Shown here: piece by piece, positions 8,890-60,773 of the stretch
How positions within the stretch are numbered: the first letter of the stretch is position 1
Layout of the letters: the number at the start of each line of letters is the position of its first letter
Virus record (IMG/VR): IMGVR_UViG_2667527592_000002
Length of the DNA: 64,000 bases
Direction: 5' to 3' (one strand)
From: a virus
Lineage: Duplodnaviria; Heunggongvirae; Uroviricota; Caudoviricetes
Position numbers and translations under genes: made by a program
Notes under the pieces: generated by a model
The model's input: only the letters and a program-made list of their open reading frames with translations
What the model was told of the DNA's origin: nothing
The model's database searches: none

Positions 8890-8899
8890 TTTCTAACAT
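8890..8899 (-). promoter_or_regulatory. TGTTAGAAAA-type recurrent motif (candidate operator)
   Basis: tttctaacat on + strand, followed by palindrome gtgtatttatatacac (8901..8916). Confidence 0.4.
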
Positions 8900-8984
8900 A
8901 GTGTATTTATATACACTGTTGATCCTGGTGGATGGGATCGAGTAGGATCGCGGTCACTGCTCCGGTAGCGACTGCCAAAAAAGC

Positions 8985-9009
8985 AAAAGCCGCTGAGAAG
9001 CGGCTTTTT
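8985..9009 (+). terminator. rho-independent terminator
   Basis: aaaagccgct-gaga-agcggctttt followed by T-run. Confidence 0.6.
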
Positions 9010-9071
9010 GGGTGTATAAATCCACTGCCATAGATTTATACGGTAGATAGATTTTTTCACGGAACTATCTG

Positions 9072-10034
9072 GTGAGTATTTTAAATTCAGTTTCAGTAAC
9101 TTTCAACACTTCTGAGTATAAAAACAACACTGAATACCACAAAAAAATCAAAGGTCATCAGTTGAGTTTTTTTGCTCGTCATAGCGGTCTTCTTTCCCCT
9201 TCACATAGCGCCATTATTGCCGAGTTCGCCAACCTGGCAGGGTCTACCGATGAATACATGATCCGTCGCTCATATGCTGATATGTCCGAGATTACAGGAC
9301 GCAGCATTTCTACTGTGCGCCGGGCATTTGCTGAAGCGACGAAGTGCGGAATGCTTGTTAAGCAACATCAGGTAGCGAATAACAATGCCCAGGTGTGTAA
9401 CGTATATCGGTTTACGACACAATTTCTCCACTTCATTCATGTAGCAATGGAGATAGGGGGTAAGCAGGGCATCAAATTTGCCAACGCCACAAAGCTGGTT
9501 AAGCAATTGATTTCAAAGGTACGTTATTTTTTTGAAACTGGGAACCCCCTGTTCAAATTGAACAAGTCCCCCCATGTTCAAAATGAACAGCCAATAGAAA
9601 ATAAGAGTCACTCTATAGCCAAAAGAAGAGAAAGATCATGCGCGGTTCAGCCAAAGGCTTCACTAGCAAATAGTTCTCAAGCGGATAATGGGTGGCTGGA
9701 TAAAAAACCAGTAATCAGGGAAGAACATACCAACCACTGCCTGGCGGCGGCAAAAGCGAGAGCTGCAAAGCGTCGTTCAGACGAGGGGCACGCAAAACGG
9801 CAGGCTCTGTATCGTACCGCTGAAAAGCTGGCAAAAAAATTTGCATGGATACGTAGTGCCGCTACCGCAGTGAATAAGCCTAAACAATCCAGCGCCCTGG
9901 ATTTCTCAATGGATTATTCTGGCTCCCAGGGGTGTGCAACCATTGGTGAAGCCTTTGACCTGATGAAACAGCGTGGCTATCGGTCTGAATTTGACCGTGA
10001 GGATTGGTCAATCCCTGCGGGATTTAGGGGATGA
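9072..10034 (+). CDS. HTH DNA-binding protein, possible lytic replication initiator (RepL-like; speculative)
   Basis: 320 aa; ...MSEITGRSISTVRRAFAEATKCGMLVK... HTH; two internal palindromes TGTTCAAATTGAACA / TGTTCAAAATGAACA at 9550..9589. Confidence 0.3.
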   Translation: MSILNSVSVTFNTSEYKNNTEYHKKIKGHQLSFFARHSGLLSPSHSAIIAEFANLAGSTDEYMIRRSYADMSEITGRSISTVRRAFAEATKCGMLVKQHQVANNNAQVCNVYRFTTQFLHFIHVAMEIGGKQGIKFANATKLVKQLISKVRYFFETGNPLFKLNKSPHVQNEQPIENKSHSIAKRRERSCAVQPKASLANSSQADNGWLDKKPVIREEHTNHCLAAAKARAAKRRSDEGHAKRQALYRTAEKLAKKFAWIRSAATAVNKPKQSSALDFSMDYSGSQGCATIGEAFDLMKQRGYRSEFDREDWSIPAGFRG

Positions 10035-10086
10035 CCTGTGTGTCTACAAAACATCCCAATGATCGGAAAATGCTCGCTCGATAATT

Positions 10087-10098
10087 TGTGTTAGAAAA
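10087..10098 (+). promoter_or_regulatory. TGTTAGAAAA-type recurrent motif
   Basis: tgtgttagaaaa; second partial copy tgtttctaaat about 10 nt downstream. Confidence 0.4.
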
Positions 10099-10447
10099 TT
10101 AATTTGCTGTTTCTAAATCGGAATGTATGATCTGCATCATCGACTGAAGTCATCCATTGCTGAAATTTTTAGTTGATCTTCCATGTTTTCAGGCTTATAT
10201 TCATGCCGTCGTAGCAAATTCTGCGACCGGGTTTGACAGCCTGAATACTTACGCGGACAACCGCACATTTCCGATATTGCGGTATTTTTGTGTCCGTAAA
10301 ACCACGTTACGCCCGAATTATGGTGGGGCGTGATGGGGAGGCTTCGGCCTGCTGGTTTCGTAAGTGCCAGTCTGTCAACCCTGTCACGTCCTGCCACCTG
10401 TTTGACAGCGGGTCGCAGGTTGTTTATCAACTTACGAGGCCGTAACT

Positions 10448-10672
10448 ATGGTTAATGCCAATCCTTGCTCACGTCCAGAATTCATCTGGCGTTTCCACTC
10501 CCTGCAAAAACACTGCGATCACTTCGCAATTGCCGCAACCGAAAAAGAAGCCCGTTCTCTGATCCCTGATCAGTATGGTGTTCTTACTGGTCGTTTCTCT
10601 ACTTCCCCACAACCAAACACTAATCCCTGGTATCGCAATATTACCAATCCCGGAATTGCGGAGGCACACTGA
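10448..10672 (+). CDS. Icd-like small protein (cell-division inhibitor family; copy 1)
   Basis: 74 aa, ...EFIWRFHSLQKH...AIAATEKEAR...; paralogue at 50569..50784; precedes Ant-like gene with ATGA overlap. Confidence 0.45.
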   Translation: MVNANPCSRPEFIWRFHSLQKHCDHFAIAATEKEARSLIPDQYGVLTGRFSTSPQPNTNPWYRNITNPGIAEAH

Positions 10673-11379
10673 TGGAAATCTGCATTCTTGAAAAGCCATC
10701 AATGACCAGCATTGAGATCGCGGAGCTGGTGGGAAGTCGCCCGGATAACGTTAAACGCACTATTGAACGCTTGAGTAAATCAGGTGTTATTCCACTTCCT
10801 CCAATGGAGGTTTCCGAAAATATCAATAACTTAGGATTTAAAGTTAAAAATTCACACTACGTCTTCGAAGGCGAGCAAGGCAAGCGTGACAGTATCATTG
10901 TCGTTGCGCAGCTTTCTCCCGAATTCACCGCCCGGCTGGTGGACCGCTGGCGCGAACTGGAAGAACAAGTACGCCAGCCGTTGACCGAAATAGAGATGAT
11001 CGCCGCAATGGCTGCAAATGCAGTTCAGCAGCAAAAGCGGCTTCATGTTGTTGAGTCAAAGGTTAGCCAGGTGGTAGAAACCGTCGAGCAAATCAAGAAG
11101 GGCAACATGCCGGAAGGTTACATTGGCTACCGCCAGCTGGCGGCGAAATGCGGCCTGACCGAAGCCAAATGCCGCAACCTTGTCAACGCTTACCGGATTC
11201 CCACCGATACGCATGAGTTTTTAACTCCAGAGGGGGTATTGTCGCGTCGTTCCATCGTCGCCTTATCTCCCTTCATGAATGCTTTTAACCGGATGATGTC
11301 GGAGGCTGAACACCGAGGAAAACGTTGGTATCACCCAAAAATGGGGCAATTCCAGGTGATCGGTTGGGGAGGTGAGTGA
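10672..11379 (+). CDS. Rha/Ant-family antirepressor (copy 1)
   Basis: N-terminal MTSIEIAELVGSRPDNVKRTIERL (phage Rha-type motif); paralogue of 50784..51725. Confidence 0.7.
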   Translation: MEICILEKPSMTSIEIAELVGSRPDNVKRTIERLSKSGVIPLPPMEVSENINNLGFKVKNSHYVFEGEQGKRDSIIVVAQLSPEFTARLVDRWRELEEQVRQPLTEIEMIAAMAANAVQQQKRLHVVESKVSQVVETVEQIKKGNMPEGYIGYRQLAAKCGLTEAKCRNLVNAYRIPTDTHEFLTPEGVLSRRSIVALSPFMNAFNRMMSEAEHRGKRWYHPKMGQFQVIGWGGE

Positions 11380-11576: not shown

Positions 11577-11584
11577 AGCGTGAT

Positions 11585-11609
11585 GCCCCGGCCTGGCCGG
11601 GGCTTTTTT
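11585..11609. terminator. bidirectional hairpin terminator
   Basis: gccccggcctggccggggc + TTTTTT between convergent genes. Confidence 0.6.
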
Positions 11610-12094: not shown

Positions 12095-12244
12095 ATTTTT
12101 CTCCCGGTCATGGGTTAATAAGTAGGCAAACTATGGGGAGTATGTGATTTTGACGGTAGTATCGTCCCCCTGAAAATAACATTCTCCATACCCTCTCAAC
12201 CGTACCGCATAGCGGAATTTTTACGGTTTAGAGGGGGAAATCCT

Positions 12245-19117: not shown

Positions 19118-19552
19118 ATGACGACATTAATTGACACTGTAAAACCGACGGAATCCTACCTTGAGGACATTTTGCCGCAGGCGCTCAATGGCAGGAGTGA
19201 AGAGGCGTTTCTGGATGCATATCTGAATGGCATGGTGGAAAGGCTGAAACGAGATCCACAGCTTTATCACCTTTATGGGCCGTGGTGGCCTGCGCTTAAA
19301 ACGTTATTGCTGGAGCGCGGCGACATATCATTTGGACAAGTTGTAGATAGTGATGTGGCAGAGATCTACAAAATGAGTCGCCCGGCGCTTACGGTTTTGG
19401 CTGGGCATCTGTATTCGAGCGATCGCCTGGAAAATGACGCGGTATACAATCCCGTTCATGCTCTGGAAGTCGCACCTTATGCTGATGATACAGAGCCATA
19501 CGTGTACACAAGTTACGACGAGTCTATAGAGAAATATCGAATCATGGGGTAG
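19118..19552 (+). CDS. hypothetical protein
   Basis: 144 aa ORF directly after DarB-like gene. Confidence 0.3.
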   Translation: MTTLIDTVKPTESYLEDILPQALNGRSEEAFLDAYLNGMVERLKRDPQLYHLYGPWWPALKTLLLERGDISFGQVVDSDVAEIYKMSRPALTVLAGHLYSSDRLENDAVYNPVHALEVAPYADDTEPYVYTSYDESIEKYRIMG

Positions 19553-19554
19553 CC

Positions 19555-19815
19555 ATGCGAAAGAATCGTAGGTTTACGGTCGAAGACCTAAAGGAATATT
19601 CCATATCGAAGGGGTATGTCCTTGAGTTCCACCGATACAAGAAGGTTTTTACGCTGCGAAAAGCAGAAAACCCCGCGAACTGGAGCTGGGTATACTTTCC
19701 TCACACCGATGATAAGTTGGTAGAACTTGTTGATGATTTAACCTATGAAGGTTGGTTGATCGCAATCGACAAGACAATCAGAGAATTATCCGAACAGGAT
19801 AAAATAACCCTTTAA
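19555..19815 (+). CDS. hypothetical protein
   Basis: 86 aa ORF, tight spacing. Confidence 0.3.
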   Translation: MRKNRRFTVEDLKEYSISKGYVLEFHRYKKVFTLRKAENPANWSWVYFPHTDDKLVELVDDLTYEGWLIAIDKTIRELSEQDKITL

Positions 19816-19951
19816 AAATAATAGGTTGGGTAAATGCCATGCGATTTACCCTCCTTGTTGATTAAGGTCACTCTTTACTCTAAAAGCAAATCCGACCTGT
19901 TGCATATAGACCATCCTTGAGTAGTATCTCTCTTGTTTTACAAATCTAACG

Positions 19952-20446
19952 TTGTTGTTATTATTTCGCATATTTACTATCAATAGGTATGTTAGAAAAA
20001 TATCGCGAAAGAGAAGGCGTCGCAGTGAATATTCTGAAACATCCCCACATGCCGCAGCTCTTAGAGAACTGGAGAAAAACCCAGATCTAATCAAAAGGAA
20101 CCATGAGCATTACGAGCAGGTTCGCGTCCTGGACTGGTTGTATCGCAATATGCGTTATGTGTATGAGCATACTCACGCCACTCCAAACGGTGGCCTGCGA
20201 GGCATAAGGACGGCAATAAAAATGGTGGCAGAGGGCCAAAAGAAGGGATATCCCGATCTTTCTATAGACCTTGCTTGTGGGGGATACCACGGAATGCGCA
20301 TTGAGATGAAACATGGGAGAAATCGCCTGACTCCCGAACAACTCGTCTGGATGACCCGCCTCACTGAAGCCGGTTACTACTGCTTTGAGGCGCGCAGTGC
20401 CGCTGAAGCCATAAAAGCTATCACGGAGTATGTTTGTCTTGATTAA
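19952..20446 (+). CDS. VRR-NUC domain nuclease (start uncertain)
   Basis: ...KKGYPDLSIDLACGGYHGMRIEMKHGRNRLTPEQLVWMTRLTEAGYYCF...; PD-(D/E)xK-type motif. Confidence 0.6.
   Translation: MLLLFRIFTINRYVRKISRKRRRRSEYSETSPHAAALRELEKNPDLIKRNHEHYEQVRVLDWLYRNMRYVYEHTHATPNGGLRGIRTAIKMVAEGQKKGYPDLSIDLACGGYHGMRIEMKHGRNRLTPEQLVWMTRLTEAGYYCFEARSAAEAIKAITEYVCLD
19988..20000 (+). promoter_or_regulatory. TGTTAGAAAA-type recurrent motif
   Basis: tatgttagaaaaa. Confidence 0.4.
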
Positions 20447-20957: not shown

Positions 20958-20965
20958 TTGCATAA

Positions 20966-20992
20966 AAACCCGCCAATTAGCGGGTTTTTTGT
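20966..20992 (+). terminator. rho-independent terminator
   Basis: cccgccaattagcggg + TTTTTT. Confidence 0.65.
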
Positions 20993-21030
20993 TTATTGCA
21001 TCTTCCGATACCGTCATCAAACTAATAAAA

Positions 21031-21043
21031 TATGTTAGAAAAC
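21031..21043 (+). promoter_or_regulatory. TGTTAGAAAA-type recurrent motif
   Basis: tatgttagaaaac about 30 nt upstream of 21071 start. Confidence 0.4.
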
Positions 21044-21070
21044 TAATTTAACAAAGTAACGGGAACAGCA

Positions 21071-22279: not shown

Positions 22280-22290
22280 TGTGTTAGAAA
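22280..22290 (+). promoter_or_regulatory. TGTTAGAAAA-type recurrent motif
   Basis: tgtgttagaaa. Confidence 0.4.
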
Positions 22291-22436
22291 TCTAAAATCA
22301 CAATTCGAATGTATTGATTGTGGAGATAACTTAACATAGAATTTTCCTTGCTGGTGGGCGGTACCCACGTTTCGCTTGCTGGGCTTGATAGTCACTTATT
22401 GGTTATTGTTCGCCAACCAGCATTTAACAAATTAAA

Positions 22437-22448
22437 GTGTTAGAAAAG
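22437..22448 (+). promoter_or_regulatory. TGTTAGAAAA-type recurrent motif
   Basis: gtgttagaaaag. Confidence 0.4.
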
Positions 22449-23032
22449 TATGGTAATGCAAGAGCACGCTTTGGCACCGTGCAGGCCAAAGTTCAGCAGG
22501 TTTAGTGCGGAAAGTGGTTTCAGAGAGAGCACTTTGCGGAGTAAACGACAATACATGTTGAGCCACGGAAGGTCTTTTTAAGGTGTTCATTGATGATGGT
22601 CCGGCAGAGAGTAACGGTACATGCTGCATCTAATCATCAATGCACATCTTCAACATTAAGGAGGCATAGGGATTTTTGTGGCGGTTACCTTTTGCCCTGA
22701 GTCTCCTTAATGTTGCGGTAATGCACCTATGCGGATGTGGCCTTGCATTGTGTCTTGAAAGAATGGGGTAAGGCCGGGGATATCCCCAGGGGGAGGCACC
22801 CCCGCTGCAACGAACAGCCACAGACGGCAGTCGAGTGATGGAAACGTGTAAAGACTTTAAACCTCGTTACGGCTGGCGTGGCAAACGCGACAACCGAGAC
22901 AGAGCGGTGACGGGCGGAGAGAGTGCCGCATCAAGAAAGAAGCCGACTTGTGATCCCTTTCTGCGGGCATTTGAAAGTGAATCCAGCTCAGGCAGTCGGC
23001 TTCTTTCTTGTGTGAGATGTAGCGTATTTGCC

Positions 23033-23056
23033 CATCTTCGGGTGGGCTTTTTTAGG
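23033..23056 (+). terminator. hairpin with UUCG tetraloop plus T-run
   Basis: gcccatc-ttcg-ggtgggc + tttttt in ORF-free region upstream of tRNAs. Confidence 0.5.
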
Positions 23057-23513
23057 GTTTTCGTCATGGTTAGCGACTTTGCGGCGGTTTAGAAACCGAC
23101 CATTAAAGTAAATGCAAACGATGATCTGATGATGGTAGCGGCCTAAGAAGCCTGACGCCACGGGGTATGAGTCGTCCCCCGTCAAAAAATCGACCGCAGA
23201 GTGTCCCCGTCTGTGTATTAGGGAACGGGGAGGCATAACAGGCAAGGGCGCTGGTGTGATTAACCAGATGAATGAGAAGGGTCAGGTCTTTCTGGTCAGC
23301 GCCCTTACCTGTTACGTCCCTCCCGCGTAACAGCCATTGCTTGATGGTATATGGGAAAGTTTGTTGGTTACGGGTATATCCCGTCATGCTGAAGGCGCTA
23401 ATCACGCTGGAAGCCAGGGTTATGCATCCCCTGTTACTGAATTGCAGCCAGGGCGCGGTGCGCCGAAAAGCATACGGAGGTGGAAGCCCTCGCCGGAGAC
23501 GTACCCGGCAAGT

Positions 23514-23589
23514 GATGGTGTAGCTCAGCGGTTAGAGCGGTTGACTGTTAATCAACGGGTCGATGGTTCAAATCCATCCACCATCGCCA
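23514..23589 (+). tRNA. tRNA-Asn (anticodon GTT)
   Basis: 76 nt cloverleaf folded by hand; acceptor GATGGTG/CACCATC, T-loop TTCAAAT, anticodon loop CTGTTAA, encoded CCA. Confidence 0.9.
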
Positions 23590-23591
23590 AT

Positions 23592-23667
23592 GCCGGTTTA
23601 GCTCAGTTGGTAGAGCGCCTGCCTTGTAAGCAGGATGTCAGCGGTTCGAGTCCGTTAACCGGCACCA
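23592..23667 (+). tRNA. tRNA-Thr (anticodon TGT)
   Basis: 76 nt; acceptor GCCGGTT/AACCGGC, D-arm GCTCAGTTGGTAGAGC, anticodon loop CTTGTAA, CCA. Confidence 0.9.
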
Positions 23668-23677
23668 GCACAACAGG

Positions 23678-23757
23678 TAAGGGTATTTTGCGACGTCGGA
23701 GATCGCCGAGCTTGGCAGAGGGTTCGAATCCCTACGAAGTACCCTTACCGTTGTGAT
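23678..23757 (+). ncRNA. tRNA-like degenerate hairpin module (unit A)
   Basis: GGTAAGGGTA...GGTTCGAATCCC...TACCCTTACC: acceptor-like stem and T-loop-like element but no canonical cloverleaf and no CCA. Confidence 0.3.
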
Positions 23758-23889
23758 GAATGCGCAGGCTGATGCGCGAAAGACATTGCAGCTATTGCGG
23801 AAAAGAGCTGTCCGGCGGGGCAATTAAACGCCCGTGAGAGTCTGAAATAACCGCAAGCCGGAGATCAGCACCGGTCATCACAACACAAC

Positions 23890-23950
23890 AGGTAAGGGCA
23901 TTCTCCCTTATGGGGCTTGGCTTAAATGCATCGAGTGCTCTTACCGTTGT
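23890..23950 (+). ncRNA. hairpin module (unit B) sharing leader and trailer with unit A
   Basis: GGTAAGGGC...GCTCTTACC stem of about 9 bp; flanked by ggagatcagcacc leader and cgttgtgatgaa trailer. Confidence 0.25.
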
Positions 23951-24337
23951 GATGAAGTGCAGCTCTTTGAAGCAACCAGAAGATAAGCATCTGGCTTCAC
24001 AACATAAACCGCAGGAACGACCAATAAACGGTAGTCCGTATGGAGAACACCCCGTTGAGGAAGAGGCCTGGCCGGAACCGTAACCGGCACTACAACGTTG
24101 AGAACACTGGCGTAACGGGGTCATATCCCAATCTACGAATAAATGTTGCGTTGCAGCGTGACAACCAGTGTTCTCAACATTGTGGTGAATGCGTGTTGCT
24201 GGCGCGCAAGTCCGCCCTATGGCAACGAGGCGGCGTAGTAAATATCGATGCCTCAGTCATCAAGCGCACTGACCGGCCTTATGGGCTATGAAAAAAAGAG
24301 GCGCAGTCGGAGATCAGCACCGACCACCACAATCAAT

Positions 24338-24424
24338 GGAGAGTAGGGAGCATGGTGCTCAAGCGGTCTTGAAAACCGTCCCATTGCGCAAGCGATGATG
24401 GTTCGATTCCATTACTCTCCGCCA
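24338..24424 (+). tRNA. tRNA-Ser-like (anticodon TGA), long variable arm, atypical D-arm
   Basis: acceptor GGAGAGT/ACTCTCC, anticodon arm GCGGTCTTGAAAACCGT, T-loop TTCGATT, CCA; D-arm non-canonical. Confidence 0.6.
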
Positions 24425-24584
24425 TCGCAACGTTAAGAGTATTTGGCTAATTAAGCGAATGCCGGAAGCAGAACCGGATCACCAAATGCGTACAGGCGTC
24501 ATCGCCGCCCAGCCAGCCAAGTGCTCTTACCATTGCGGTGAATGCGGCTAAGCGCACGCGGAACAGTTAAAACAATCCTCCTTA

Positions 24585-24908
24585 GTGGTTAAGTCAAACA
24601 TCCCGGCGTTAATTGTTAACTGGTTAACGTCACCTGGAGGCACCAGGCACCGCAATCTAATAAAGTTTCAAGCAATGGGGTTTTTGTTGTCAGACTTCAG
24701 ATATAGATGGTTGTGGAAGGAGAGCCTGTACATAGTGCAGTTATTTCTTCCGCTATTTGTCTGCTTTGTCATGCTTCCTGAGCTGAAATACGCAATTTCA
24801 GACACTTTAAGCACTATCGTTACTTTTGTGTTTTATCTTTACTTTGATTACTTATTGAGCACTAAAATCAATGAATTATCCGAGGAAATGCAAGGTGGCT
24901 GTAAGTGA
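24585..24908 (+). CDS. small hydrophobic protein (start uncertain)
   Basis: ORF between tRNAs with two predicted TM helices. Confidence 0.25.
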   Translation: MVKSNIPALIVNWLTSPGGTRHRNLIKFQAMGFLLSDFRYRWLWKESLYIVQLFLPLFVCFVMLPELKYAISDTLSTIVTFVFYLYFDYLLSTKINELSEEMQGGCK

Positions 24909-24909
24909 T

Positions 24910-25038
24910 GGATTTTTGGGCGTTTGCCGATAAGAACCCTGGTTGGACATTTTTATTTTTGCTGGTGGTTGCATATGGGGTCGAGCAAGCGGCTAAAGCC
25001 TTACGCGGTTCTGGCAAAAAGCGTAAGCGGAATTAACA
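24910..25038 (+). CDS. small membrane protein (42 aa; below ORF-track cutoff)
   Basis: MDFWAFADKNPGWTFLFLLVVAYGVEQAAKALRGSGKKRKRN; one TM helix, basic tail. Confidence 0.25.
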
Positions 25039-25045
25039 GTAATCT

Positions 25046-25121
25046 GGCCCTTTAGCTCAGTGGTTAGAGCAGGCGACTCATAATCGCACGGTCACCGGTT
25101 CAAATCCGGTAGGGGCCACCA
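25046..25121 (+). tRNA. tRNA-Ile2-like (anticodon CAT, lysidine type) or tRNA-Met
   Basis: 76 nt; near-identical arms to E. coli ileX as recalled: GGCCCTTTAGCTCAGTGGTTAGAGCAGGCGACTCATAATCGC... Confidence 0.9.
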
Positions 25122-25575
25122 TATTTGGTTGTAACACGGCGTATGGCACATGCGTCGTTAGCGGTCTGGTGTAGCTGTTAGGTACCTTACTAACACTGCA
25201 TGGGCACATCAGGTAGCCGGAATGTGCAAGTCACCGCTGGAGGGATAGCGGACTCAGGGACTCACCATCCTGGCGATTCGGTGTGACAGCCGGAATAGCA
25301 CGGCGCACAACAGGAAAAGGCGTTTAATTAACGCGAGCGCCGTTTCCGTTGTGGTAATTGCGGCTATGCGCTCGTGACGAAGCCATTTTCATTCACTACG
25401 TTCTGATAAGTGACGTCGCCGGGAGTGGCTAACCTGGCAGGTGGAGGCACCACCGCCACAACTCCTTTCAATTCATCATATAGCCGCTCAGGCTGTACCC
25501 CTTAATTAATACGAAGTTACGACATCACTACCGGTACTTCCGGGGGATAGTCGCGCGTGTAAAAAAGGAGACGTT

Positions 25576-26543: not shown

Positions 26544-26651
26544 CGTTAGGTATTTAATATTAGTTTTCTAATATAATCATCTTTTTACCAGTCTATACAG
26601 TTTTAACATTCTCATTATCATCCCCTCGGTCATTTCCTGCCCGGGGGATTA

Positions 26652-27044
26652 ATGGAACAAATCAGCAGCGCAGAAATTGCGGATATCATGATCAGGGCTG
26701 ACTGCTATCTGACAGTCACTGAAATTACCACTCTCGCCAAAGAAAAATACCCTCATCTCCATGTTTCACGAGTAAGTGTAACTAACATCATTCGTCATTT
26801 TGTTCGTTCAAGCAGGGCAATCTGTGAGCTGGATGATCGTGTGTATCCACGAAAATACTGGCTACATGGTCTGAACGGATATCAGTTCAAGGTGCGCGGG
26901 CGCACGCCTGAATACGGTAGCTTACTGGTTAAAAACTGTAGCAGGAAATCAGTCGAACAGGCGCGAAAAGAGCAACGAGAGCTGGTGGACATGGCGAATA
27001 AGCTGTGGAATGCCGCCGTTAAAAAGCGTGGTGTTGCTTTATGA
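26652..27044 (+). CDS. hypothetical protein (late-activator position upstream of terminase genes)
   Basis: 130 aa; position only. Confidence 0.3.
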   Translation: MEQISSAEIADIMIRADCYLTVTEITTLAKEKYPHLHVSRVSVTNIIRHFVRSSRAICELDDRVYPRKYWLHGLNGYQFKVRGRTPEYGSLLVKNCSRKSVEQARKEQRELVDMANKLWNAAVKKRGVAL

Positions 27045-29940: not shown

Positions 29941-30978
29941 TTACCAGAGCTTCGCGGCGTACTGCGTTTGGGGGAATGTGTATCCGTAACGTTCTTCGAT
30001 TGCTTTGCCGTATTTTTTACGAGCTTCATTCAGTTTAATGCCGGTCAGGTCGTCTCCAGAGGCCATCATTACCTCTAACAATTCCAGATCCATTTTATCC
30101 AGCCTTGCCATTGCTTCACGTGATGTACGTATCTTACGCTCAATGATATGGCGAATAGCCGGATCGGCATCCTCCAGCATCTTAGCGGATTTCTGCTTAA
30201 GGCTTTCATTGCGAATATCGATGTTCCTTAAGATGTACGACTTCGCAACGTAGCTTGGCTGGTGTTTTTCCAGGTCACGAACACGATATAAGTTAAAATC
30301 GCCGAGAAGGCTGCAAGGTACCGATTCGACGCCAGAATAAATTGTAATGCTCCGGCGTTCACCAACATTATTGACAACGGGGATCGTTGTCTTCGGTAGT
30401 CTTGCGAAAACCAATGCGCCATGTGCGCCAACTCTAAAGCGAGAAAGGGCATTGCTGCCTTCGATGTTTGTTGTCAGCACAACATCTGTATATGCCTCTT
30501 TACGCGCCCGGTAGATCTCGCCTTCAGGCTCAGCTTCAAAGAAGCGCTGTTCTTCTTCAAGAGCGCCTACGATTTGAGAAAAAACCCTATTTTTCAGGCT
30601 TTTCTTTATGATTTTGTCGTATTTTTTGAGCAATTGTTCACGTGTAAATGTACGTGTTGTTGTAGCGCTTTGCACAACAACATGCGTGCTTTGATTGGTG
30701 TCCTCAATGATGAATGGGATCGGAGAATATACAGACTCAACAATGTTCGACGCTTTGCCGTCGGCATCGCGGCACATGTCAACGAAGGCTTTCCATTCAG
30801 CAAGACATTTTTCAGCTTCTTCTAATATGTTTTGGTCATGCGTTAATGCAACATGGCGGAATTCCTCGCCAGCATAACTGGTATCATGGAAAACAGAGTT
30901 TGCGACCACCAGCTCTTTCCACCGTTCAGCGGTTTGCAGGAACCGTTTGTACTCTTTCTCGATCGACTTCTTACTCAT
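29941..30978 (-). CDS. hypothetical protein (occupies P1 c1-repressor position; unverified)
   Basis: 345 aa ORF with bidirectional hairpin after stop; motif site 19 nt upstream of start. Confidence 0.4.
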   Translation of the reverse strand: MSKKSIEKEYKRFLQTAERWKELVVANSVFHDTSYAGEEFRHVALTHDQNILEEAEKCLAEWKAFVDMCRDADGKASNIVESVYSPIPFIIEDTNQSTHVVVQSATTTRTFTREQLLKKYDKIIKKSLKNRVFSQIVGALEEEQRFFEAEPEGEIYRARKEAYTDVVLTTNIEGSNALSRFRVGAHGALVFARLPKTTIPVVNNVGERRSITIYSGVESVPCSLLGDFNLYRVRDLEKHQPSYVAKSYILRNIDIRNESLKQKSAKMLEDADPAIRHIIERKIRTSREAMARLDKMDLELLEVMMASGDDLTGIKLNEARKKYGKAIEERYGYTFPQTQYAAKLW

Positions 30979-30996
30979 TATTCCTACTCGATTTAG

Positions 30997-31007
30997 TTTT
31001 CTAACAT
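30997..31007 (-). promoter_or_regulatory. TGTTAGAAAA-type recurrent motif
   Basis: ttttctaacat on + strand. Confidence 0.4.
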
Positions 31008-31187
31008 AAAATTACTATGACAAATTTATGTCGAATAACAGAGTGAGTAAAGGATCGAACTGTGATTTTTTGTCATCAATTTTAGAAAACCAACCGTAGA
31101 AACCACACTTCGCAAATTAAAGACCATGAAGGCAACGTGTTACTGGTCATCATCAATCTATGATGGATTTAAAAAAATCGGCATTTT

Positions 31188-32401: not shown

Positions 32402-32407
32402 ATTAAA

Positions 32408-32418
32408 TTTCTAACACA
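32408..32418 (-). promoter_or_regulatory. TGTTAGAAAA-type recurrent motif
   Basis: tttctaacaca. Confidence 0.4.
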
Positions 32419-37846: not shown

Positions 37847-38597
37847 GGTCCGCCTCATGTTTATCAGCCACCAGCGGCAATAAAGCCTTCGCCATTTCAT
37901 GAACCAACATGGCATCAATGACGCCTAGCGTATGGCCCGGCTTAATCTTTAATGCGGCCTCAAGATAGCCTCTTTCCAGAGTGGTTTTTACGCTTTTCCT
38001 GGGCGCTTGTTGGGAACTATCCGGAAAATCCGGATGGTTCCCAGCCTCATAAGCTACCCGCAACCAGTGCATGAATGTTTCCGCAGACACACAACCGCAG
38101 TCCACATCGATTTTCCCGCGTTGCTGTTCCAGCCATTGCTCAAAATCTAACTTGTAAGCCTTACTTTCAGACTTAACTTTCTGAGACGCTATGCGAGCTG
38201 CTTCATACTGTTCACGAGTGACAACCGATGTAAACGCACTGCGATCAAGGTCACTGATATCGCAAATAATGCCATCAATGGAATAATTCTTTGATGATTG
38301 GTAATTTTTATGGCGCGTACCAAAAAGAACCGTAGCGCGACTACTACCTGGCATCGTAATGGATAGATGGCAAAAATCTTTTCCATCAGGCCATCCACGC
38401 CCCTTAGATAATTCCTTCACTAACAAGTCAATCAGTGTCATAGCTTTACCATCCTTGCAAGGCGCTAAAGCTATTTTGGCAAGCTCCAATACTTCATCTG
38501 CTGTGTATCCAGCACCGTGACCATACATTTCGATACGGGAAATAATATCTGAAATACGCTCTTTAGTGATTCTTGTCATAGTTTTATTTCCTTGCAT
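37830..38597 (-). CDS. hypothetical protein
   Basis: 255 aa ORF. Confidence 0.35.
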   Translation of the reverse strand: MQGNKTMTRITKERISDIISRIEMYGHGAGYTADEVLELAKIALAPCKDGKAMTLIDLLVKELSKGRGWPDGKDFCHLSITMPGSSRATVLFGTRHKNYQSSKNYSIDGIICDISDLDRSAFTSVVTREQYEAARIASQKVKSESKAYKLDFEQWLEQQRGKIDVDCGCVSAETFMHWLRVAYEAGNHPDFPDSSQQAPRKSVKTTLERGYLEAALKIKPGHTLGVIDAMLVHEMAKALLPLVADKHEADHANES

Positions 38598-44494: not shown

Positions 44495-44507
44495 TATGTT
44501 AGAAAAC
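44495..44507 (+). promoter_or_regulatory. TGTTAGAAAA-type recurrent motif
   Basis: tatgttagaaaac, with degenerate inverted copy tgttctaacgca at 44517..44528. Confidence 0.4.
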
Positions 44508-44551
44508 TAAAATCAATGTTCTAACGCATTTTGAGTGCGTAAATGATTTGA

Positions 44552-49178: not shown

Positions 49179-49757
49179 ATGCAGAAACAGAGCTATTGGG
49201 AGAAACAGAGACAAAAAGCCATGCAAAAATTGGCTGACCCGGCCTGGCGAGAGGAACAAAGGGCAAAGCGCCTTCAACAAGCTCAACGCCAGCAGCAGCG
49301 AGCGAGAGAAAAAGCCGCATCGCCTGAATATCGGCAAAAAAAAATTGAAAAAGCAAAGCAATATGACCAGCGGAGAAAAGAGAAAGCTGTATCCGCTCCG
49401 TCCAAAAAAACACGCACGTCACGCGGCCTGAAGGGCAGATCACTCACAGCCGATGAGCGCCGGATACAGACCGCTATCGGTACTCTCCCCTGCATTGCCT
49501 GCCATATTCACGGGCAACATAGCCCAGTAGTATCCCTGCACCATATCTTCGGGAGAACGGCAGAGAACGCGCATAAATATGTCCTCCCTTTGTGTAAATG
49601 GCACCACCAGTACGCAGCGCCAGCCGAGGTCCGAGAACAATATCCCTGGCTGGTCCCTGTTCATGCTGATGGAAAAATAGGCGGAAAAGCAGATTTCATA
49701 CGGCACAATGCCGATGAAATGGCGTTGTATCAGATGGCAATTGAATTGATAAATTAG
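49179..49757 (+). CDS. ref: HNH endonuclease with highly charged N-terminal region (Ref-like)
   Basis: N-terminal about 80 aa K/R/Q/E-rich; C-terminal ...LPCIACHIHG...HHIFGR...LPLCKWHH... HNH-type Cys/His pattern. Confidence 0.55.
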   Translation: MQKQSYWEKQRQKAMQKLADPAWREEQRAKRLQQAQRQQQRAREKAASPEYRQKKIEKAKQYDQRRKEKAVSAPSKKTRTSRGLKGRSLTADERRIQTAIGTLPCIACHIHGQHSPVVSLHHIFGRTAENAHKYVLPLCKWHHQYAAPAEVREQYPWLVPVHADGKIGGKADFIRHNADEMALYQMAIELIN

Positions 49758-49768
49758 TTTTCTAACAT
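49758..49768 (-). promoter_or_regulatory. TGTTAGAAAA-type recurrent motif
   Basis: ttttctaacat. Confidence 0.4.
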
Positions 49769-50087
49769 TTTAAGTTGAATTGAAAATTTCTCCGATGTAC
49801 ATTCACTACCGATTGGCACACCGGTCAACTTTTTGAGACAAACTATTTAGTTTTTCGTATTATTGCCGCCGCCATACCTATGGCGGTGCAATATAGGTGG
49901 CTGAAAAGCCCCCGTTGACTCACGGTGTTCCAGCCTTTATTGCGCCGCCACCAGACCGTGGAACAGTCGATGGCGGCTCCGAAAGCAAGGAGTCACTACA
50001 CTATGAACAACTACAGTCTTTTCCCATCACTCGTCGTCCACCACTCACGCGATAATCTGCATTCTTTACTCGCGCTGGGGGTGTCAA

Positions 50088-50255: not shown

Positions 50256-50353
50256 AAATACTGACTGTTGCGCCCTGGCATTATCGTGGGGTATATTTCT
50301 ACGGCACCTTAGAAAAACGGGTGCCGGGATTGGAACCCCGGATAATGCAAAAG

Positions 50354-50376
50354 GCGACACAGACGCCGAAAGCGTC
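50354..50376 (+). terminator. rho-independent terminator
   Basis: gacgccgaaagcgtc + ttttttt. Confidence 0.6.
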
Positions 50377-50568
50377 TTTTTTTGTGTCATGCCATCGCAC
50401 AGCCATACGTAGCGTTTAGCTCAGAGATCAATGGTAGTGCTGGCTGGGCTGCCGAAAGGCAGGCCGGTTCCCTTTTGCGCCGGTAGTTCCAACCCAGTCA
50501 GTGCTACCGCCATTGAGATTGGAACCTCACGCGGTAGCTCCTTAAATTAGCAAAAGGAGGCTGCCAAT

Positions 50569-50784
50569 ATGGCTACTATCCCTACCCCAACTCATTCTGA
50601 ATTTATCTGGCGTTTCTATTCCTGCCAAAAACACCTGTATATCTGCGTAATGGCTGCTACCGAAGCAGAAGCTCGTTCATACCTTCCTGAAGAACCCTGC
50701 ATTTTTGCCGCACGCTTCACTCTTGATGCGATGGAGATCCTCAATTACTGGAATCTGCCGATGAACTGCGTGGAGGTGCACTGA
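50569..50784 (+). CDS. Icd-like small protein (copy 2)
   Basis: ...EFIWRFYSCQKH...VMAATEAEAR...; paralogue of 10448..10672. Confidence 0.45.
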   Translation: MATIPTPTHSEFIWRFYSCQKHLYICVMAATEAEARSYLPEEPCIFAARFTLDAMEILNYWNLPMNCVEVH

Positions 50785-51725
50785 TGAATCTGCCCATCTC
50801 TCGCAAAGCGACAATGACCAGTATTGAGATCGCGAAACTGGTGGGAAGTCGTCACTCTGATGTTAAACGCAGCATCGAAAGACTTGTTGCTAAAGGTGTT
50901 ATCCAACATACGCCATTGGCTACAGTTGAGAATAATCAATCACTTAGCCCTAATAAATACACAAAAGCCTATGTCTTCGAAGGCGAACAAGGCAAACGAG
51001 ACAGTATCATTGTCGTCGCACAGCTCTCTCCGGAATTCACCGCCCGGCTGGTGGACCGCTGGCGCGAACTGGAGAATGCCAGGGGACCGTTAAAATCAAA
51101 AGCCGAAATCCTGGCTGAAATGGCGCAAATGCATCTTGAGCATGAACGCCGGATCAACGCCGTAAATGCCCAGGTAGCCGAGGTATCAGCACAAGTATCG
51201 ATGGTTGCTGAAACACTCGAGCAAATAAAGAAAGGCAATATTCCGGAAGGCTACATTGGCTACCGCCAGCTGGCGGCGAAATGCGGCCTGACTGAAGCCA
51301 AATGCCGAAACCTGGTCAACGCTTACCGGATTCCCACCGATACGCATGAGTTTTTAACTCCAGATGGTTTGCTTGCGCGACGCTCCATTGTGGCCCTGGC
51401 CCCCTTCCGGAAAGCCTTTAAGCAGGTGATGTCGGAGGCAGAACCACGCAATAAACGCTGGTATCATCCAAAGATGGGGATGTTTCAGGCAATCCACCAT
51501 CCTGTGCCTGAAAGCCCAAAGGATAATCTGTCACTACATACCGCCAGAGAGAAGATCAGGACTGGATACGCAACAGTGTGTCGTCGTTCTTCCTGGCCTG
51601 AAGGTGTATGGGTATGGCCCGAAGGTGGATCACGAAAGCACTGGCGCACCATCCGGGACGGAAAAATCCATGCTATTGATTTAGCTCCAAAGGATGTTAT
51701 TGCTATGGACTGGATTGTTAGTTAA
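50784..51725 (+). CDS. Rha/Ant-family antirepressor (copy 2) with DUF2829-like C-terminal extension
   Basis: MTSIEIAKLVGSRHSDVKRSIERL; C-terminal ...KIRTGYATVCRRSSWPEGVWVWP...IHAIDLAPKDVIAMDWIVS aligns with standalone 11376..11576. Confidence 0.7.
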   Translation: MNLPISRKATMTSIEIAKLVGSRHSDVKRSIERLVAKGVIQHTPLATVENNQSLSPNKYTKAYVFEGEQGKRDSIIVVAQLSPEFTARLVDRWRELENARGPLKSKAEILAEMAQMHLEHERRINAVNAQVAEVSAQVSMVAETLEQIKKGNIPEGYIGYRQLAAKCGLTEAKCRNLVNAYRIPTDTHEFLTPDGLLARRSIVALAPFRKAFKQVMSEAEPRNKRWYHPKMGMFQAIHHPVPESPKDNLSLHTAREKIRTGYATVCRRSSWPEGVWVWPEGGSRKHWRTIRDGKIHAIDLAPKDVIAMDWIVS

Positions 51726-53129: not shown

Positions 53130-53345
53130 GTAAACAAAATGAAGTTTTATGTTATAAAAACAATTAACTACATCAACATGATTTAGGCCAAATTTCGGTC
53201 AAAAAATAAAATCCACAAAAAGTGGTTGACACTATTTTGGAAATCACAAACTACACATAATCCATCGCGCTAACGGCTCCCGTTGAAGGTTCTTTTGACG
53301 ATTAACTTTCAGCCGAAGCGCGGTAGGGAGTCATAACGCCAAAGC

Positions 53346-54051: not shown

Positions 54052-54379
54052 TCACATTAGTAGCTTTGTTAACTCCCTCAATACCAGGTAGAAGAGTAAC
54101 AAAAATATTGACGCGAGTATTTGAGTGGTCAATGAAGCGTTCATAAACAGATCAATTAGCATTAATAATTCGAAGATAACATCCATGTCATTCACTCCGT
54201 TTAATTTTTAATCTAATGCCAGCAAAGGAAGCTGGCCCCCGCATAAAGATTAATGAAAGTCACTTGTCACCAGTGAGGGGATTTATGAACCACATCCCCC
54301 TGAACTGGTGGCCTGTCTGTTTCTCGCATTTCACACCCTGCATACAGTTTCCCCCAGGTTATGACTGAGAGGCTTTGTT

Positions 54380-57460: not shown

Positions 57461-57530
57461 TATGAATTGAAATCACAATCTCCAGACAATGCACCCTCGA
57501 TACCTGATAAATCGACCTTTGAGGATGCTT

Positions 57531-58322: not shown

Positions 58323-59086
58323 CTTCAAATAAAACCCTCCTGGCGCGAACAGGTGAATGGCAAACCTCACGCACAGGAAAATTCCAGACCACGGGCTTTG
58401 AAAGCGTGGATAACGCGTTTGCTACGCTAATCAGCAATATCTTTTCTGATATCTTACTGGTGGCCCCCGCGCCGGAAGAAAAACGCTTTGCGTCATTCCT
58501 GAATCGTCCACCAGCAGAGCGTGTCTATGTGGCCCGTTTCGACAATGCGATCGAGTTTCTTAAAGCAGTTCGTCGCGCAAATGCCGGGCAAGGGAGAAAA
58601 CCTGAAAACCAGAACATTAACCGGGATGCTCTCCCCCTGGTCAATATCTCACGCACTATGGATATCAATTATATCAACGATGATCAGCAGATTGACCGCA
58701 AAAAAGTAGCCAGTTTTTGCGAACCGGATACCGGAATGCCTTTAGCAGAACTGGAATACACCCAGGCCATTCTGACGTATGACGTTACGTTAATGGCAAC
58801 TGATAAAGCGACCATGAGTCTGATGTGTAATTCGCTGGGCGCACGGCTTCGCCTGATGACAGGTACACAATTTGAAGCAACCACTCACCTTGTTCGTGTC
58901 CCGGTCCCGCTGATTTGCTCGATACAGGATGCCAAAGAAGTCGGCTTTACGGATGTTTCAGCACCAATTGGAGAAGAGCGTATTTATGCCACACAAGCGC
59001 CGATAAGTGTGATTGCAGACGTGATCACAGCATGGGAGTTGGACGCAAAACGTATTATTACCGAAACCTCGATATCTATGGGGTGA
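58319..59086 (+). CDS. hypothetical protein (possible virion component)
   Basis: 255 aa, overlapping start; same operon as gpV-like gene. Confidence 0.3.
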   Translation: MTSNKTLLARTGEWQTSRTGKFQTTGFESVDNAFATLISNIFSDILLVAPAPEEKRFASFLNRPPAERVYVARFDNAIEFLKAVRRANAGQGRKPENQNINRDALPLVNISRTMDINYINDDQQIDRKKVASFCEPDTGMPLAELEYTQAILTYDVTLMATDKATMSLMCNSLGARLRLMTGTQFEATTHLVRVPVPLICSIQDAKEVGFTDVSAPIGEERIYATQAPISVIADVITAWELDAKRIITETSISMG

Positions 59087-59089
59087 TAA

Positions 59090-60070
59090 GTGGCCCAGGA
59101 GTTACAACAATATTTTCTACAGTCAGTGCTCATTAACGATAACAAAGTGCCACGAGACTGGATTTTTACCGCAGTATATGTAGAAAAAACCAGCCTCAAA
59201 GCCCCTTTGCTAAAACTGGAAATTCATGACGCTACCGGCACCGTAATTGATGACTGGAAAGCCAAATACGGTGCATCGCTGGTGGCTGAAATGGGCGATC
59301 CAAACGGTAATGCAGGCACTTTTAAAACAGATTTCTTTGTTACGTCTGCAATGCTGGCTGGTGATGTTGTTACCGTTATTGCTGTCAGTGAAGACGTGCG
59401 CAGGTTTAAGATCCCCTCCCCGCGCACAAATTTACATACCAACAAAACACCAGACGCTATATTCAAGGCATATTCCGGCAAGCTTAAAATTACCAGCAGC
59501 GTGCTAAAACGCGCAGTTACATATCATCTGAATGCTGGTGACAAACCGTCAAAAATGCTTTCGGAGATAGCGCGAGACAAAGGTGCATTGTGTTGGGTAT
59601 GTCGGGGGGAATTTAACTTTTACACCCTGGCTGATCTGATGAAGCAAACGCCATCATTTACCTACGAGGGGAATAACCCTAAAGCAGAATACACTTTGTC
59701 AAAAATGCGCCTACTCCAACAGGAACATGCGTCAACAGCAAAGAATCAATATCGTTTTGTTGGGTATTCCATGACCGATGGCTACGTCGAATATGGCGAT
59801 AGCTCACTCCCAGTGCGTTATATATCCGACTCTGATATGGAAACTCTTCGCAATATGCAGCTGTCTCTCGTCCCCAAAATGGATATAGAAGTCGCAGGCA
59901 ATCCTGATATAAAACCGGGGATGGTAATAGAGATTATCGTATACCGCTATGACCAGGAAAACCGCATTGATGAATCAATGCCCCGTAAGCTGATAGTAAA
60001 AAATGTTGCGCACTTTGAGGACCGCGTAGGCTACACAACACGAATGATATTGGGAGTGCCGAACAAATGA
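59090..60070 (+). CDS. hypothetical protein (possible baseplate component)
   Basis: 326 aa, immediately upstream of gpV-like gene. Confidence 0.3.
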   Translation: MAQELQQYFLQSVLINDNKVPRDWIFTAVYVEKTSLKAPLLKLEIHDATGTVIDDWKAKYGASLVAEMGDPNGNAGTFKTDFFVTSAMLAGDVVTVIAVSEDVRRFKIPSPRTNLHTNKTPDAIFKAYSGKLKITSSVLKRAVTYHLNAGDKPSKMLSEIARDKGALCWVCRGEFNFYTLADLMKQTPSFTYEGNNPKAEYTLSKMRLLQQEHASTAKNQYRFVGYSMTDGYVEYGDSSLPVRYISDSDMETLRNMQLSLVPKMDIEVAGNPDIKPGMVIEIIVYRYDQENRIDESMPRKLIVKNVAHFEDRVGYTTRMILGVPNK

Positions 60071-60720
60071 AGCGTAGAGCGCAAATTGTTGGAACTGTGC
60101 ACCCGGCAGGGCTTATGCGTGCTCAAGTCCGTGTTTTACCTGACTGGAATGGCGTTCCTGATGACGATCTCCCATGGGCAGAATACCTGTTACCCATAGG
60201 TAACGCGTTTGTACCTACAGTAAAAGGCGACCTAGTATGGGTAGAGTTTCCTTATCTGGATGTTAATGGTCGAATTGATACCAGACGCCCAATGATAGTT
60301 GGCGCGGCTCAGGATGCGCCAGGCGGAATTCCAAACGTTGCACCAGAAGCATCTGGCAAAGGCAACGGCTGGACGCCGCCGGAAGTAGATGGAGCACCTC
60401 CCCGCCCCCAAATCTCAGCAACGAAAGACTTCGTTATTCACCGCAACAATATTCTTGAAGTACGAACTGCTGGTGGCGGCTATGAAATTGCCAATACGGC
60501 AGCTGGCTCAAGGATTGGCATGAATGAGTCCGGGCAGATATATATCATTGGTCCGGCTGATGTAATCGTGAATGCAGGAGGGAGTGTTAACGTCAAATCA
60601 GCCAACAACATCAATGTTAATGGGGAAAATATAGCTGTCACCGCTAACGGGGACATAGCTTTCAAGGCAGGAGGAACCTTTCAGGCCACTGCTGGCAACT
60701 TCGATTTCAAGAAAGGATAG
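60067..60720 (+). CDS. baseplate spike/hub protein (P2 gpV-like)
   Basis: N-terminal OB-fold pattern ...GTVHPAGLMRAQVRVLPDWNGVPDDDLPWAEYLLPIGN...VKGDLVWVEF..., Gly-rich beta-helix-like C-terminus. Confidence 0.5.
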   Translation: MKRRAQIVGTVHPAGLMRAQVRVLPDWNGVPDDDLPWAEYLLPIGNAFVPTVKGDLVWVEFPYLDVNGRIDTRRPMIVGAAQDAPGGIPNVAPEASGKGNGWTPPEVDGAPPRPQISATKDFVIHRNNILEVRTAGGGYEIANTAAGSRIGMNESGQIYIIGPADVIVNAGGSVNVKSANNINVNGENIAVTANGDIAFKAGGTFQATAGNFDFKKG

Positions 60721-60730
60721 AAAACGCACC

Positions 60731-60773
60731 CATTTGTGTTAGATAATTAACATGCATTTTCTAACACAAATGG
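60731..60773. promoter_or_regulatory. perfect 12-bp inverted repeat pair containing the TGTTAGA motif (candidate operator)
   Basis: catttgtgttag...ctaacacaaatg separated by about 19 bp, immediately upstream of rdgC-like start. Confidence 0.5.

Follow-up and report, generated by a model that had tools for sequence, protein, structure and literature searches.

A recurrent intergenic motif of a D6-like plasmid prophage as the probable operator of its C1-family repressor

Short words that recur between the genes of a prophage raise the question of which protein reads them. In IMG/VR virus record IMGVR_UViG_2667527592_000002, of which a stretch of 64,000 nucleotides (nt; hereafter the window) was analyzed, an initial annotation made from the letters alone had noted that a motif of the type TGTTAGAAAA returns in both orientations in at least twelve intergenic regions, and had suggested that it is bound by a repressor or activator, either as a C1-like operator or as an Lpa-like late site. 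The window shares 98-99% identity with Escherichia phage D6 and with about 100 plasmids of the D6 type from E. coli and Salmonella; it is a D6-like plasmid prophage of the P1 family. Comparison with these relatives and with P1 suggests that the prophage's own C1-family repressor uses the motif as its operator and that the sites together form a C1 regulon, a reading to which we assign a probability of roughly 85%. It is supported by the positions of the sites, their likeness to the P1 operator, their covariation with the C1 lineage, and conserved footprints.

Does the motif recur more often than expected? The exact 10-mer TGTTAGAAAA is found nine times in the window, compared to 0.26 occurrences expected from dinucleotide-preserving shuffles (maximum 2), and 18 matches with at most one mismatch compare to 5.2 expected. 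All instances listed in the initial annotation are present, with coordinates that are right to 0-2 nt. Alignment of the instances shows that the motif is longer than 10 base pairs (bp) and asymmetric: in the orientation used initially, an A/T-rich stretch is followed by TGTTAGAAAA and then by yTAA, giving the unit ..TGTTAGAAAAyTAA.., while the reverse-complement strand reads A..TTArTTTTCTAACAyA. A 16-bp matrix built from 14 seed sites (TTArTTTTCTAACAyA; threshold 13 bits) returns 18 matches compared to 0.65 expected, and all seeds reach at least 15.3 bits in leave-one-out scoring. Depending on whether dinucleotide or Markov shuffles are used, the enrichment is 28- to 35-fold, so that the count lies well above a shuffled background.

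The matches are also restricted to particular places. Sixteen of the 18 matrix matches are non-coding, although non-coding DNA accounts for 9.6% of the window (binomial P = 6.5e-15; coding fraction 90.4%, with gene coordinates transferred from the D6 record), and the motif is thus far from equally common in coding DNA. The two matches inside annotated genes are the site at 19988, which lies in a probably over-extended TTG start of pmgM, and a weak match at 6064 in ddrB. The resulting inventory comprises 14 strong and four weaker sites, which are asymmetric and dispersed over intergenic regulatory regions. It includes sites that had not been listed before (31078-31093, 19934-19949, 44513-44528, and 53148-53163), as well as additional weak partner half-sites at 10113, 26544, and 49125. 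The 27 kb of D6 beyond the window hold one further operator-type site (of the TTCTAACA class, at 54204), between the capsid gene and orf52 and upstream of the latter. A distance of 20-80 nt from operon starts, as initially given for most sites, applies to about eight of the 14; the others lie 170-970 nt upstream, e.g., before the C4 RNA and before the tRNA cluster.

Which protein, then, might read such sites? Two genes had been put forward as encoding candidate regulators:

29941-30978, minus strand: c1, a C1-family prophage repressor of 345 amino acids and the presumed reader of the motif; 99.6% DNA identity to c1 of D6
26652-27044: lpa, 130 amino acids, an Lpa homologue (PF25716, E 5e-57), 31% identical to P1 Lpa

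The 345-amino-acid product has kept its place as a candidate, as it turned out to be homologous to the P1 repressor C1. The gene is flanked by pacB and dre, which is the syntenic position (between pacB and the cre/dre recombinase gene, on the strand opposite to these). The two C1 proteins share 21% identity (BLASTP, E 3e-8), and hhalign aligns residues 6-241 with a probability of 98.35% (E 1e-14). All C1 homologues carry the precomputed Pfam annotation PF27008 (Phage_P7_repressor_C1); local Pfam-A matched no family to window C1 or P1 C1, PHROGs labels the protein "unknown function," and a second profile-based protein search added one further cluster only. Protein comparison identifies window C1 as a distant homologue of P1 C1, and this homology is solid. 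Window C1 is about 60 amino acids longer than its P1 counterpart and has a C-terminal extension of about 100 amino acids, which is predicted to be helical. About 150 plasmid records encode this type of C1, and D6-like prophages are common in E. coli, Salmonella, and Shigella.

P1 possesses 22 dispersed C1 operators, which follow an asymmetric 17-mer consensus, ATTGCTCTAATAAATTT (PMC8546580); the same consensus is obtained from the sequences extracted from the curated P1 record, with its 20 C1 operator half-sites and 11 late promoters. The reverse complement of the window motif, e.g., AGTTTTCTAACATATTT, agrees with the P1 consensus in about 12 of its 17 letters, and both combine a TCTAA core with a 3' part rich in A/T. 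The words themselves differ, with TT-TCTAA-CA in the window compared to GC-TCTAA-T in P1. No match to the P1-type operator is present in the window with up to three mismatches, and the window matrix finds no match in P1, which has GCTCTAAT 15 times instead.

Graded C1 homologues were collected from plasmids by tblastn, the 10-20 kb on either side of c1 were fetched for each identity tier, and the 8-mers of ORF-free DNA (ORF, open reading frame) were ranked without prior choice of a word. In P1, which served as a positive control, the ranking recovers the known C1 operator (TGCTCTAA and neighboring words). In the window, TTTTCTAA, TTTCTAAC, and TTCTAACA come out on top, and intergenic DNA contains no other word with an enrichment of this order. 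The window word is also the top or near-top intergenic word in replicons whose C1 is 90, 81, 70, 51, 48, or 42% identical to that of the window. Alignments of the regions upstream of c1 and lpa show the same at the level of single sites: the operator word is retained in the tiers down to 42% even as its flanks diverge, as would be expected of a footprint. At 30993-31008, ahead of c1, the word TTTTATGTTAGAAAAC is unchanged in the tiers from 100% to 68% and has a single change at 42%.

A third lineage is represented by plasmids from Leclercia (L011, NZ_CP042508) and Citrobacter (L012, NZ_CP114569), in which the window matrix has no matches. Their C1 belongs to the same length class and is about 29-30% identical to window C1 and 24% identical to P1 C1. 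Here, the word (A)TTCTAAGG is found upstream of c1, rdgC, ref, and a repL-like gene, and downstream of the recombinase gene; in the Citrobacter plasmid, it occurs at 5368, 13619, 18378, 19481-19886, 26034/26214, and 39798. The hrdC upstream regions of the three lineages are too divergent for a common alignment and inform only on the word that each lineage uses. Three C1 lineages are thus accompanied by what appear to be three operator "dialects" around a common TCTAA core, whose positions are conserved.

This conservation of position can be followed site by site. The sites of the window are listed below with their score (bits from the 16-bp matrix) and, where there is one, the P1 operator found at the corresponding place, with the correspondence being one of position only. 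Paired sites have no single strand.

8885-8900, plus: single half-site TTAAATTTCTAACATA between pro and repL, 24.9 bits; P1 OrepL
10087-10120, paired: operator ahead of the immI module (c4-a1b1 targets, C4 RNA, icd, ant), strong half 10087-10102 (minus), 26.8 bits, weak partner CTAAAT at 10113; P1 Oc4
19934-19949 and 19988-20003, minus: two sites around the pmgM promoter, 13.4 (weak) and 21.9 bits (strong); P1 O26
21031-21046, minus: single half-site directly upstream of pmgS, 26.8 bits; P1 OpmgR
22280-22295, minus: single half-site at the stop codon of pmgS and ahead of the tRNA/tci segment, 25.1 bits; with the next site, P1 Oban
22436-22451, minus: single half-site upstream of the tRNA-Asn/Thr/Ser/Met cluster, 19.7 bits; P1 Oban
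26544-26575, paired: operator upstream of lpa, strong half 26560-26575 (plus), 23.3 bits, partner CGTTAG at 26544-26549; P1 Olpa
30993-31008, plus: half-site ahead of c1, 15 nt from its start codon, 26.8 bits, putatively autoregulatory; with the next site, P1 Oc1
31078-31093, minus: inverted second site on the upstream side of the c1 promoter, weaker at 15.4 bits, TTTTCTAA core kept in all tiers; P1 Oc1
32403-32418, plus: single half-site at the stop codon of dre, preceding the orf117-orf116-dut-isaA operon, 25.0 bits; P1 Ossb
44495-44528, paired: operator located between ppp and the pdcB-like operon (minus-strand genes), 26.8 and 9.6 bits
49099-49130, paired: operator in the promoter region of the divergent genes ref and orf88, 23.6 bits, partner CTAACT at an offset of 24; P1 Oref
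49754-49769, plus: single half-site that overlaps the stop codon of ref and lies ahead of orf86 and the second C4-icd-ant module, 24.4 bits; P1 Omat
53148-53163, minus: weak candidate site TTGTTTTTATAACATA, intergenic, upstream of mat, 15.3 bits, uncertain
60735-60768, paired: operator directly upstream of hrdC (rdgC family), dcm, and dam, 23.4 and 20.3 bits; P1 Odmt

The first of these sites begins 16 nt past the pro stop codon and lies about 170 nt before repL; in P1, OrepL (Op53) is placed ahead of kilA-repL. The operator of the immI module has inverted TTAGAAA/TTTCTAA arms, with c4-a1b1 (10195-10247) and C4 (10316-10401; both by Rfam) directly downstream, which is the layout of P1 Oc4/Op51. 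Between the two pmgM sites lies a consensus-like promoter, TTTACA-16-TG-TATTAT (19937-19964); the P1 counterpart O26/Op82 precedes pmgL-pmgM. The TTG start of pmgM in the D6 annotation (19952) encloses the operator, and a GTG at about 20025, which is preceded by the Shine-Dalgarno sequence GAGAAGG, is a more plausible start. For pmgS, too, the start taken from the D6 annotation (21056) looks wrong, as it falls on GTA; translation likely begins with the ATG at 21071. The half-site upstream of pmgS follows a terminator-like hairpin (20964-20989) and is overlapped by a candidate -10 element, TAAAAT (21026-21031); in P1, OpmgRa/b is located ahead of pmgR-pmgS. At lpa, both halves of the operator are perfect in the relatives L006-L008, and the P1 counterpart is Olpa/Op94.

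At c1, the strong site lies just downstream of a conserved, sigma-70-like promoter on the minus strand (TTTACT-17-TAAATT, 31051-31023), which it brackets together with the second site about 85 bp away. The site at the end of dre is found at the same place in L006, L007, L013, and L014, and a variant of the third lineage takes this place in L012 (18378); in P1, Ossb is located ahead of ssb-isaA. The operator between ppp and the pdcB-like operon reads TGTTAG-N18-CTAACG, is a perfect pair in L006 and L007, and contains a candidate promoter, TTGATT-17-TATTTT. The ref / orf88 operator is perfect in the same two relatives and contains the candidate -35 elements of both divergent promoters. As with the window site at 49754-49769, P1 Omat overlaps the end of ref. 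The uncertain site upstream of mat has a stronger equivalent in D6 (72198, 18.5 bits). The sequence before hrdC, initially described as a perfect 12-bp palindrome, proved to be an interrupted inverted repeat with 18-nt arms that are 94% complementary (14 nt perfectly so) and separated by a gap of 8 nt. A candidate -10 element, GATAAT, arises within its left arm; in P1, Odmt/Op68 precedes uhr-hrdC-dmt, and in L012 the third-lineage variant is found at the same place (5368).

The window contains two immI-type modules, each downstream of an operator, at 10195-10401 and 50304-50514. The first consists of c4-a1b1 targets and the C4 antisense RNA, followed by icd and ant (10448-11379), and the second of isrK-like and C4 RNAs, again followed by icd and ant (50569-51725). 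The duplication of immI has been reported for a D6-like prophage (PMC6799933). The tRNA genes downstream of the site at 22436-22451 (23514-25121) are part of a mosaic segment (23027-25307) that is 92-94% identical to the tRNA-tci region of P1/P7 and embedded in D6-type sequence. The homology starts at window position 23027, corresponding to P1 68855 and thus about 160 bp downstream of P1 Obanab, so that no P1 operators were inherited along with the segment. All four tRNA genes (Asn, Thr, Ser-UGA, Met/Ile-CAT) are on the plus strand of the window; in the D6 record, the tRNAs are given on the strand opposite to that of tciA.

The sites come in two architectures. Five of them, at lpa, immI/c4, the pdcB operon, ref/orf88, and hrdC, have an inverted partner at an offset of exactly 24 bp (TGTTAG-N18-CTAACA) and thus form palindromes of about 30 bp from two head-to-head half-sites of 15-16 bp; the others stand alone, as half-sites that may face either way. 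The window thus combines monovalent operators with bivalent ones (paired, inverted). The partners are imperfect here and perfect in both directions in relatives; for the window alone, the chance of finding at least three partners among 13 sites at one fixed offset is P = 2.8e-5. In a relaxed scan, which is suggestive at best, candidate promoters overlap or adjoin most sites: the site at pmgS contains the -10 element, that at c1 spans about +5 to +26, and the pairs at pdcB, ref/orf88, and c4 enclose the promoters.

Overall, the system resembles that of P1 and P7 in its homologous repressor encoded between pacB and Cre/Dre, in its many dispersed, asymmetric sites of about 16-17 bp in both orientations, in the set of operons concerned, in the combination of single and paired sites, and in the TCTAA core. 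Apart from the operator word, differences concern the c1 promoter, which is bracketed by two sites in the window compared to being overlapped by a bivalent site in P1, and the accessory proteins Lxc and Coi, which are encoded in P1 and have no homologue detected in the window. The element is accordingly placed, by comparison of repressor and operators, in a P1-type ImmC system outside the P1/P7 immunity group.

Several observations weigh against an assignment of the motif to C1. First, its support is wholly comparative, and the covariation with C1 is confounded with the overall divergence of the replicons, so that another co-inherited regulator could produce the same pattern. Second, the bivalent operators of P1 (Obanab, Oc1ab) are arranged tail-to-tail with an overlap of 6 bp, compared to the head-to-head arrangement with an offset of 24 bp in the window. 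Third, strict scans for sigma-70 consensus promoters and terminators around the sites gave counts that are not above shuffled expectation, so that promoter assignments are weak and provide no more than hints on the geometry of sites and promoters; in the case of repL and lpa, the site and the best consensus promoter do not overlap, the promoter being 16-20 bp further downstream. Finally, the circuit is not a copy of that in P1, as a tblastn search of the 64-kb window, beyond which about 27 kb of the replicon lie, detected no homologue of Lxc or Coi, nor of ImcA/B, KilA, or Hxr (best E 0.26). A lack of Lxc has also been reported for a D6-like prophage (PMC6799933).

The first of these points leads to the alternative that fares best, albeit at a low probability: the sites might be bound by another regulator, of phage or host, that is co-inherited with the D6-type backbone, while C1 recognizes something else. 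A recombinant in which c1 was swapped on a D6-like backbone would separate the two, but none was found among the loci examined, and for these the covariation with C1 is inseparable from that of the rest of the genome. However, the likeness to the experimentally defined P1 C1 operator and the one-to-one match of positions point to C1 in particular, and no second intergenic word reaches a similar enrichment. A host factor is unlikely in any case, because P1 resides in the same host and lacks matches to the matrix.

It is even less probable that the motif is a core sigma-70 element, i.e., an extended -10 (TGnTAGAAA) by which the host RNA polymerase recognizes early promoters. TGTTAGAAA does agree with TGnTATAAT at six of nine positions, the word faces the downstream gene in about nine sites at a distance of 10-60 nt from the start codon, and the variant at hrdC, TGTTAGATAAT, makes a good -10 hexamer (GATAAT). 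However, the consensus hexamer is TAGAAA, in which the critical last T is missing, and the word faces away from the downstream gene at 8889, 26564, 32407, 49758, and 44497. Conservation moreover extends over 16 bp, including the yTAA 8 bp downstream, and to the exact 24-bp inverted pairs. Nor should related phages that infect the same hosts have GCTCTAAT or TTCTAAGG in place of an element read by the host polymerase. The mixed orientation, the length of the conserved word, and the inverted pairs thus bear out the initial preference for a regulator-binding site over a core promoter element; of the two regulator sites that had been proposed, the C1-like operator has stood up to comparison and the Lpa-like late site has not.

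The latter would make the motif the D6 version of the "-22 box" of P1, i.e., the recognition element of Lpa-dependent late promoters, which we consider very improbable. The presence of an Lpa homologue, and of sites ahead of genes with morphogenetic names (pmgM, pmgS), could be taken to favor it. However, the sites at c1, lpa itself, repL, the two anti-repressor modules, ref, and hrdC represent the early, C1-controlled set in P1, and the motif occurs in both orientations with respect to the downstream gene, while a promoter element needs one. Upstream of the structural and lysis operons, the TGTTAGAAAA motif is absent. The P1 late-promoter box (AAGTGACTT-N4-TANNNT) bears no resemblance to it, and a scan for this type of box (AAGTGACTT-N3-6-TANNNT, at most two mismatches) returned one perfect match (54247-54265, minus) and otherwise scattered weak ones, so that the P1 late box is not the recurrent motif of the window. 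The perfect match (AAGTGACTT-tcat-TAATCT) lies between mat and gp26 and points at the tiny orf77, away from gp26. The late operons instead carry a box of their own, on account of which the Lpa reading was rejected:

4677-4697 (plus), 6124-6144 (plus), 12130-12150 (minus), 53241-53261 (plus), and 57470-57490 (plus), also 22295 (plus): candidate late box AAATCACA-N7-nAnnnT

In the window, these boxes lie upstream of ddrB, prt, the lysis hydrolase gene orf16 (divergent from darB), mat, and gp7; the late-promoter-type candidate at 22295 adjoins the operator site at 22280-22295. The complete D6 genome contains eight such boxes, each upstream of a late operon: they precede orf16, prt, ddrB, tail-fibre R/S, sit/pmgB, the major capsid gene (gp23), gp7, and mat, with those beyond the window (D6, L002/L005) at 38135, 45511, and 54144, upstream of tail-fibre R/S, sit/pmgB, and the major capsid gene. 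Their places include those of P1 LPpro, LPs, LPsit, LP23, and LPmat, but the box is not the AAGTGACTT of P1; it is also found at orthologous places in L006-L008, L010, and L012.

Finally, recurrence by chance, as a compositional artefact, or as the functionless relic of a short dispersed repeat, for which nothing speaks except the AT-richness of intergenic DNA, is effectively refuted by the enrichment, the intergenic restriction, and the persistence of the word in orthologous places, amid diverging flanks, as far as the tier with 42% C1 identity.

With the motif read as the C1 operator, a scheme of lysogenic control can be proposed by analogy with P1. P1 C1 binds its asymmetric operator as a monomer, and in a lysogen of the D6 type C1 would likewise occupy the sites with one protein per half-site. 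Binding would block the access of RNA polymerase, or its escape, at promoters for early functions, replication, anti-repressors, and the late activator. C1 would also repress its own promoter through the two bracketing sites, possibly by looping. Repression of lpa would keep the separate late regulon off, and inactivation of C1, e.g., by the Ant proteins that both immI modules encode, would release the whole regulon. With an operator word other than that of P1, and without P1-type operators in the window, the element should be heteroimmune to P1 and P7.

A comparable organization is known from the stoperators of Cluster A mycobacteriophages (L5 gp71 type), where one repressor also serves many dispersed asymmetric sites and immunity specificity evolves with the site sequence (PMC6550527). 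There, however, the repressor is an unrelated helix-turn-helix protein, and the sites lie mostly in transcribed regions and affect elongation in an orientation-dependent manner, unlike the intergenic sites of mixed orientation in the window.

Dispersed C1 operators of P1-family prophages have long been known, in P1 since the 1980s, and the system of the window is their expected counterpart, so that its existence is a small surprise. The D6 GenBank records annotate no operators, and neither they nor the plasmid records give the operator word of the D6 type, the geometry of its pairs, or the dialects; no description of any of these was found in the searchable literature, though an earlier one may exist. 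The sites provide a sequence-level map of the lysogeny regulon of D6-like plasmid prophages, in which the C1 regulon is separated from the late (Lpa) regulon. Because operator positions are conserved over three C1 lineages while the word changes, these prophages offer a convenient natural system for studying the co-evolution of repressor and operator and for predicting to which superinfection-immunity group a phage-plasmid belongs.

The element of wider interest is a possible fold of C1. An AlphaFold2 model from ten homologues (predicted local distance difference test score, pLDDT, 82.7; predicted template modeling score, pTM, 0.50; a single-sequence model with pLDDT 41 was unusable) was compared with the PDB by Foldseek, and complexes of E. 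coli Tus with Ter were the only significant matches (four entries, E 4e-8 to 6e-6, about 305 aligned columns), at low template modeling scores of 0.33-0.42. PDB searches with the single C1 sequence or with a profile returned nothing, with no similarity to Tus at the sequence level, a BFVD fold search gave no significant match, and no paper linking Tus and C1 was found in the searchable literature. The resemblance is thus a lead and no demonstration. Tentatively, the C1-family repressors of P1- and D6-type phage-plasmids may be structural relatives of Tus that act as monomeric clamps on asymmetric sites, a proposal that we consider possible but rather unlikely. It would fit the anatomy of the operator, as Tus is a monomer that clamps an asymmetric site, and a monomer on an asymmetric site is likewise what is reported for P1 C1; the role of C1, however, is predicted to be transcriptional repression compared to the arrest of replication forks by Tus. 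The half-site ATGTT-AGAA-AACTAA also resembles the Ter core, ATGTT-GT-AACTAA, which may be a coincidence. One might further speculate that the C-terminal helices of D6-type C1 replace the missing Lxc, either by pairing monomers on the 30-bp palindromes or by looping the c1 sites. If the Tus-type reading were true, specificity would be written around the invariant TCTAA core as GC-TCTAA-T (P1), TT-TCTAA-CA (D6 type), or AT-TCTAA-GG (Citrobacter/Leclercia type), and immunity groups could be predicted from sequence.

A side observation concerns the sequence Chi (GCTGGTGG), the over-representation of which is a known feature of P1. Among 9-mers, none is more strongly over-represented than Chi with its extensions, be it in the window, in D6, in P1, or in all related plasmids; words of this type are 20- to 50-fold more frequent than under a zero-order expectation, with CACCAGCA/TGCTGGTG occurring 27 times in the window.

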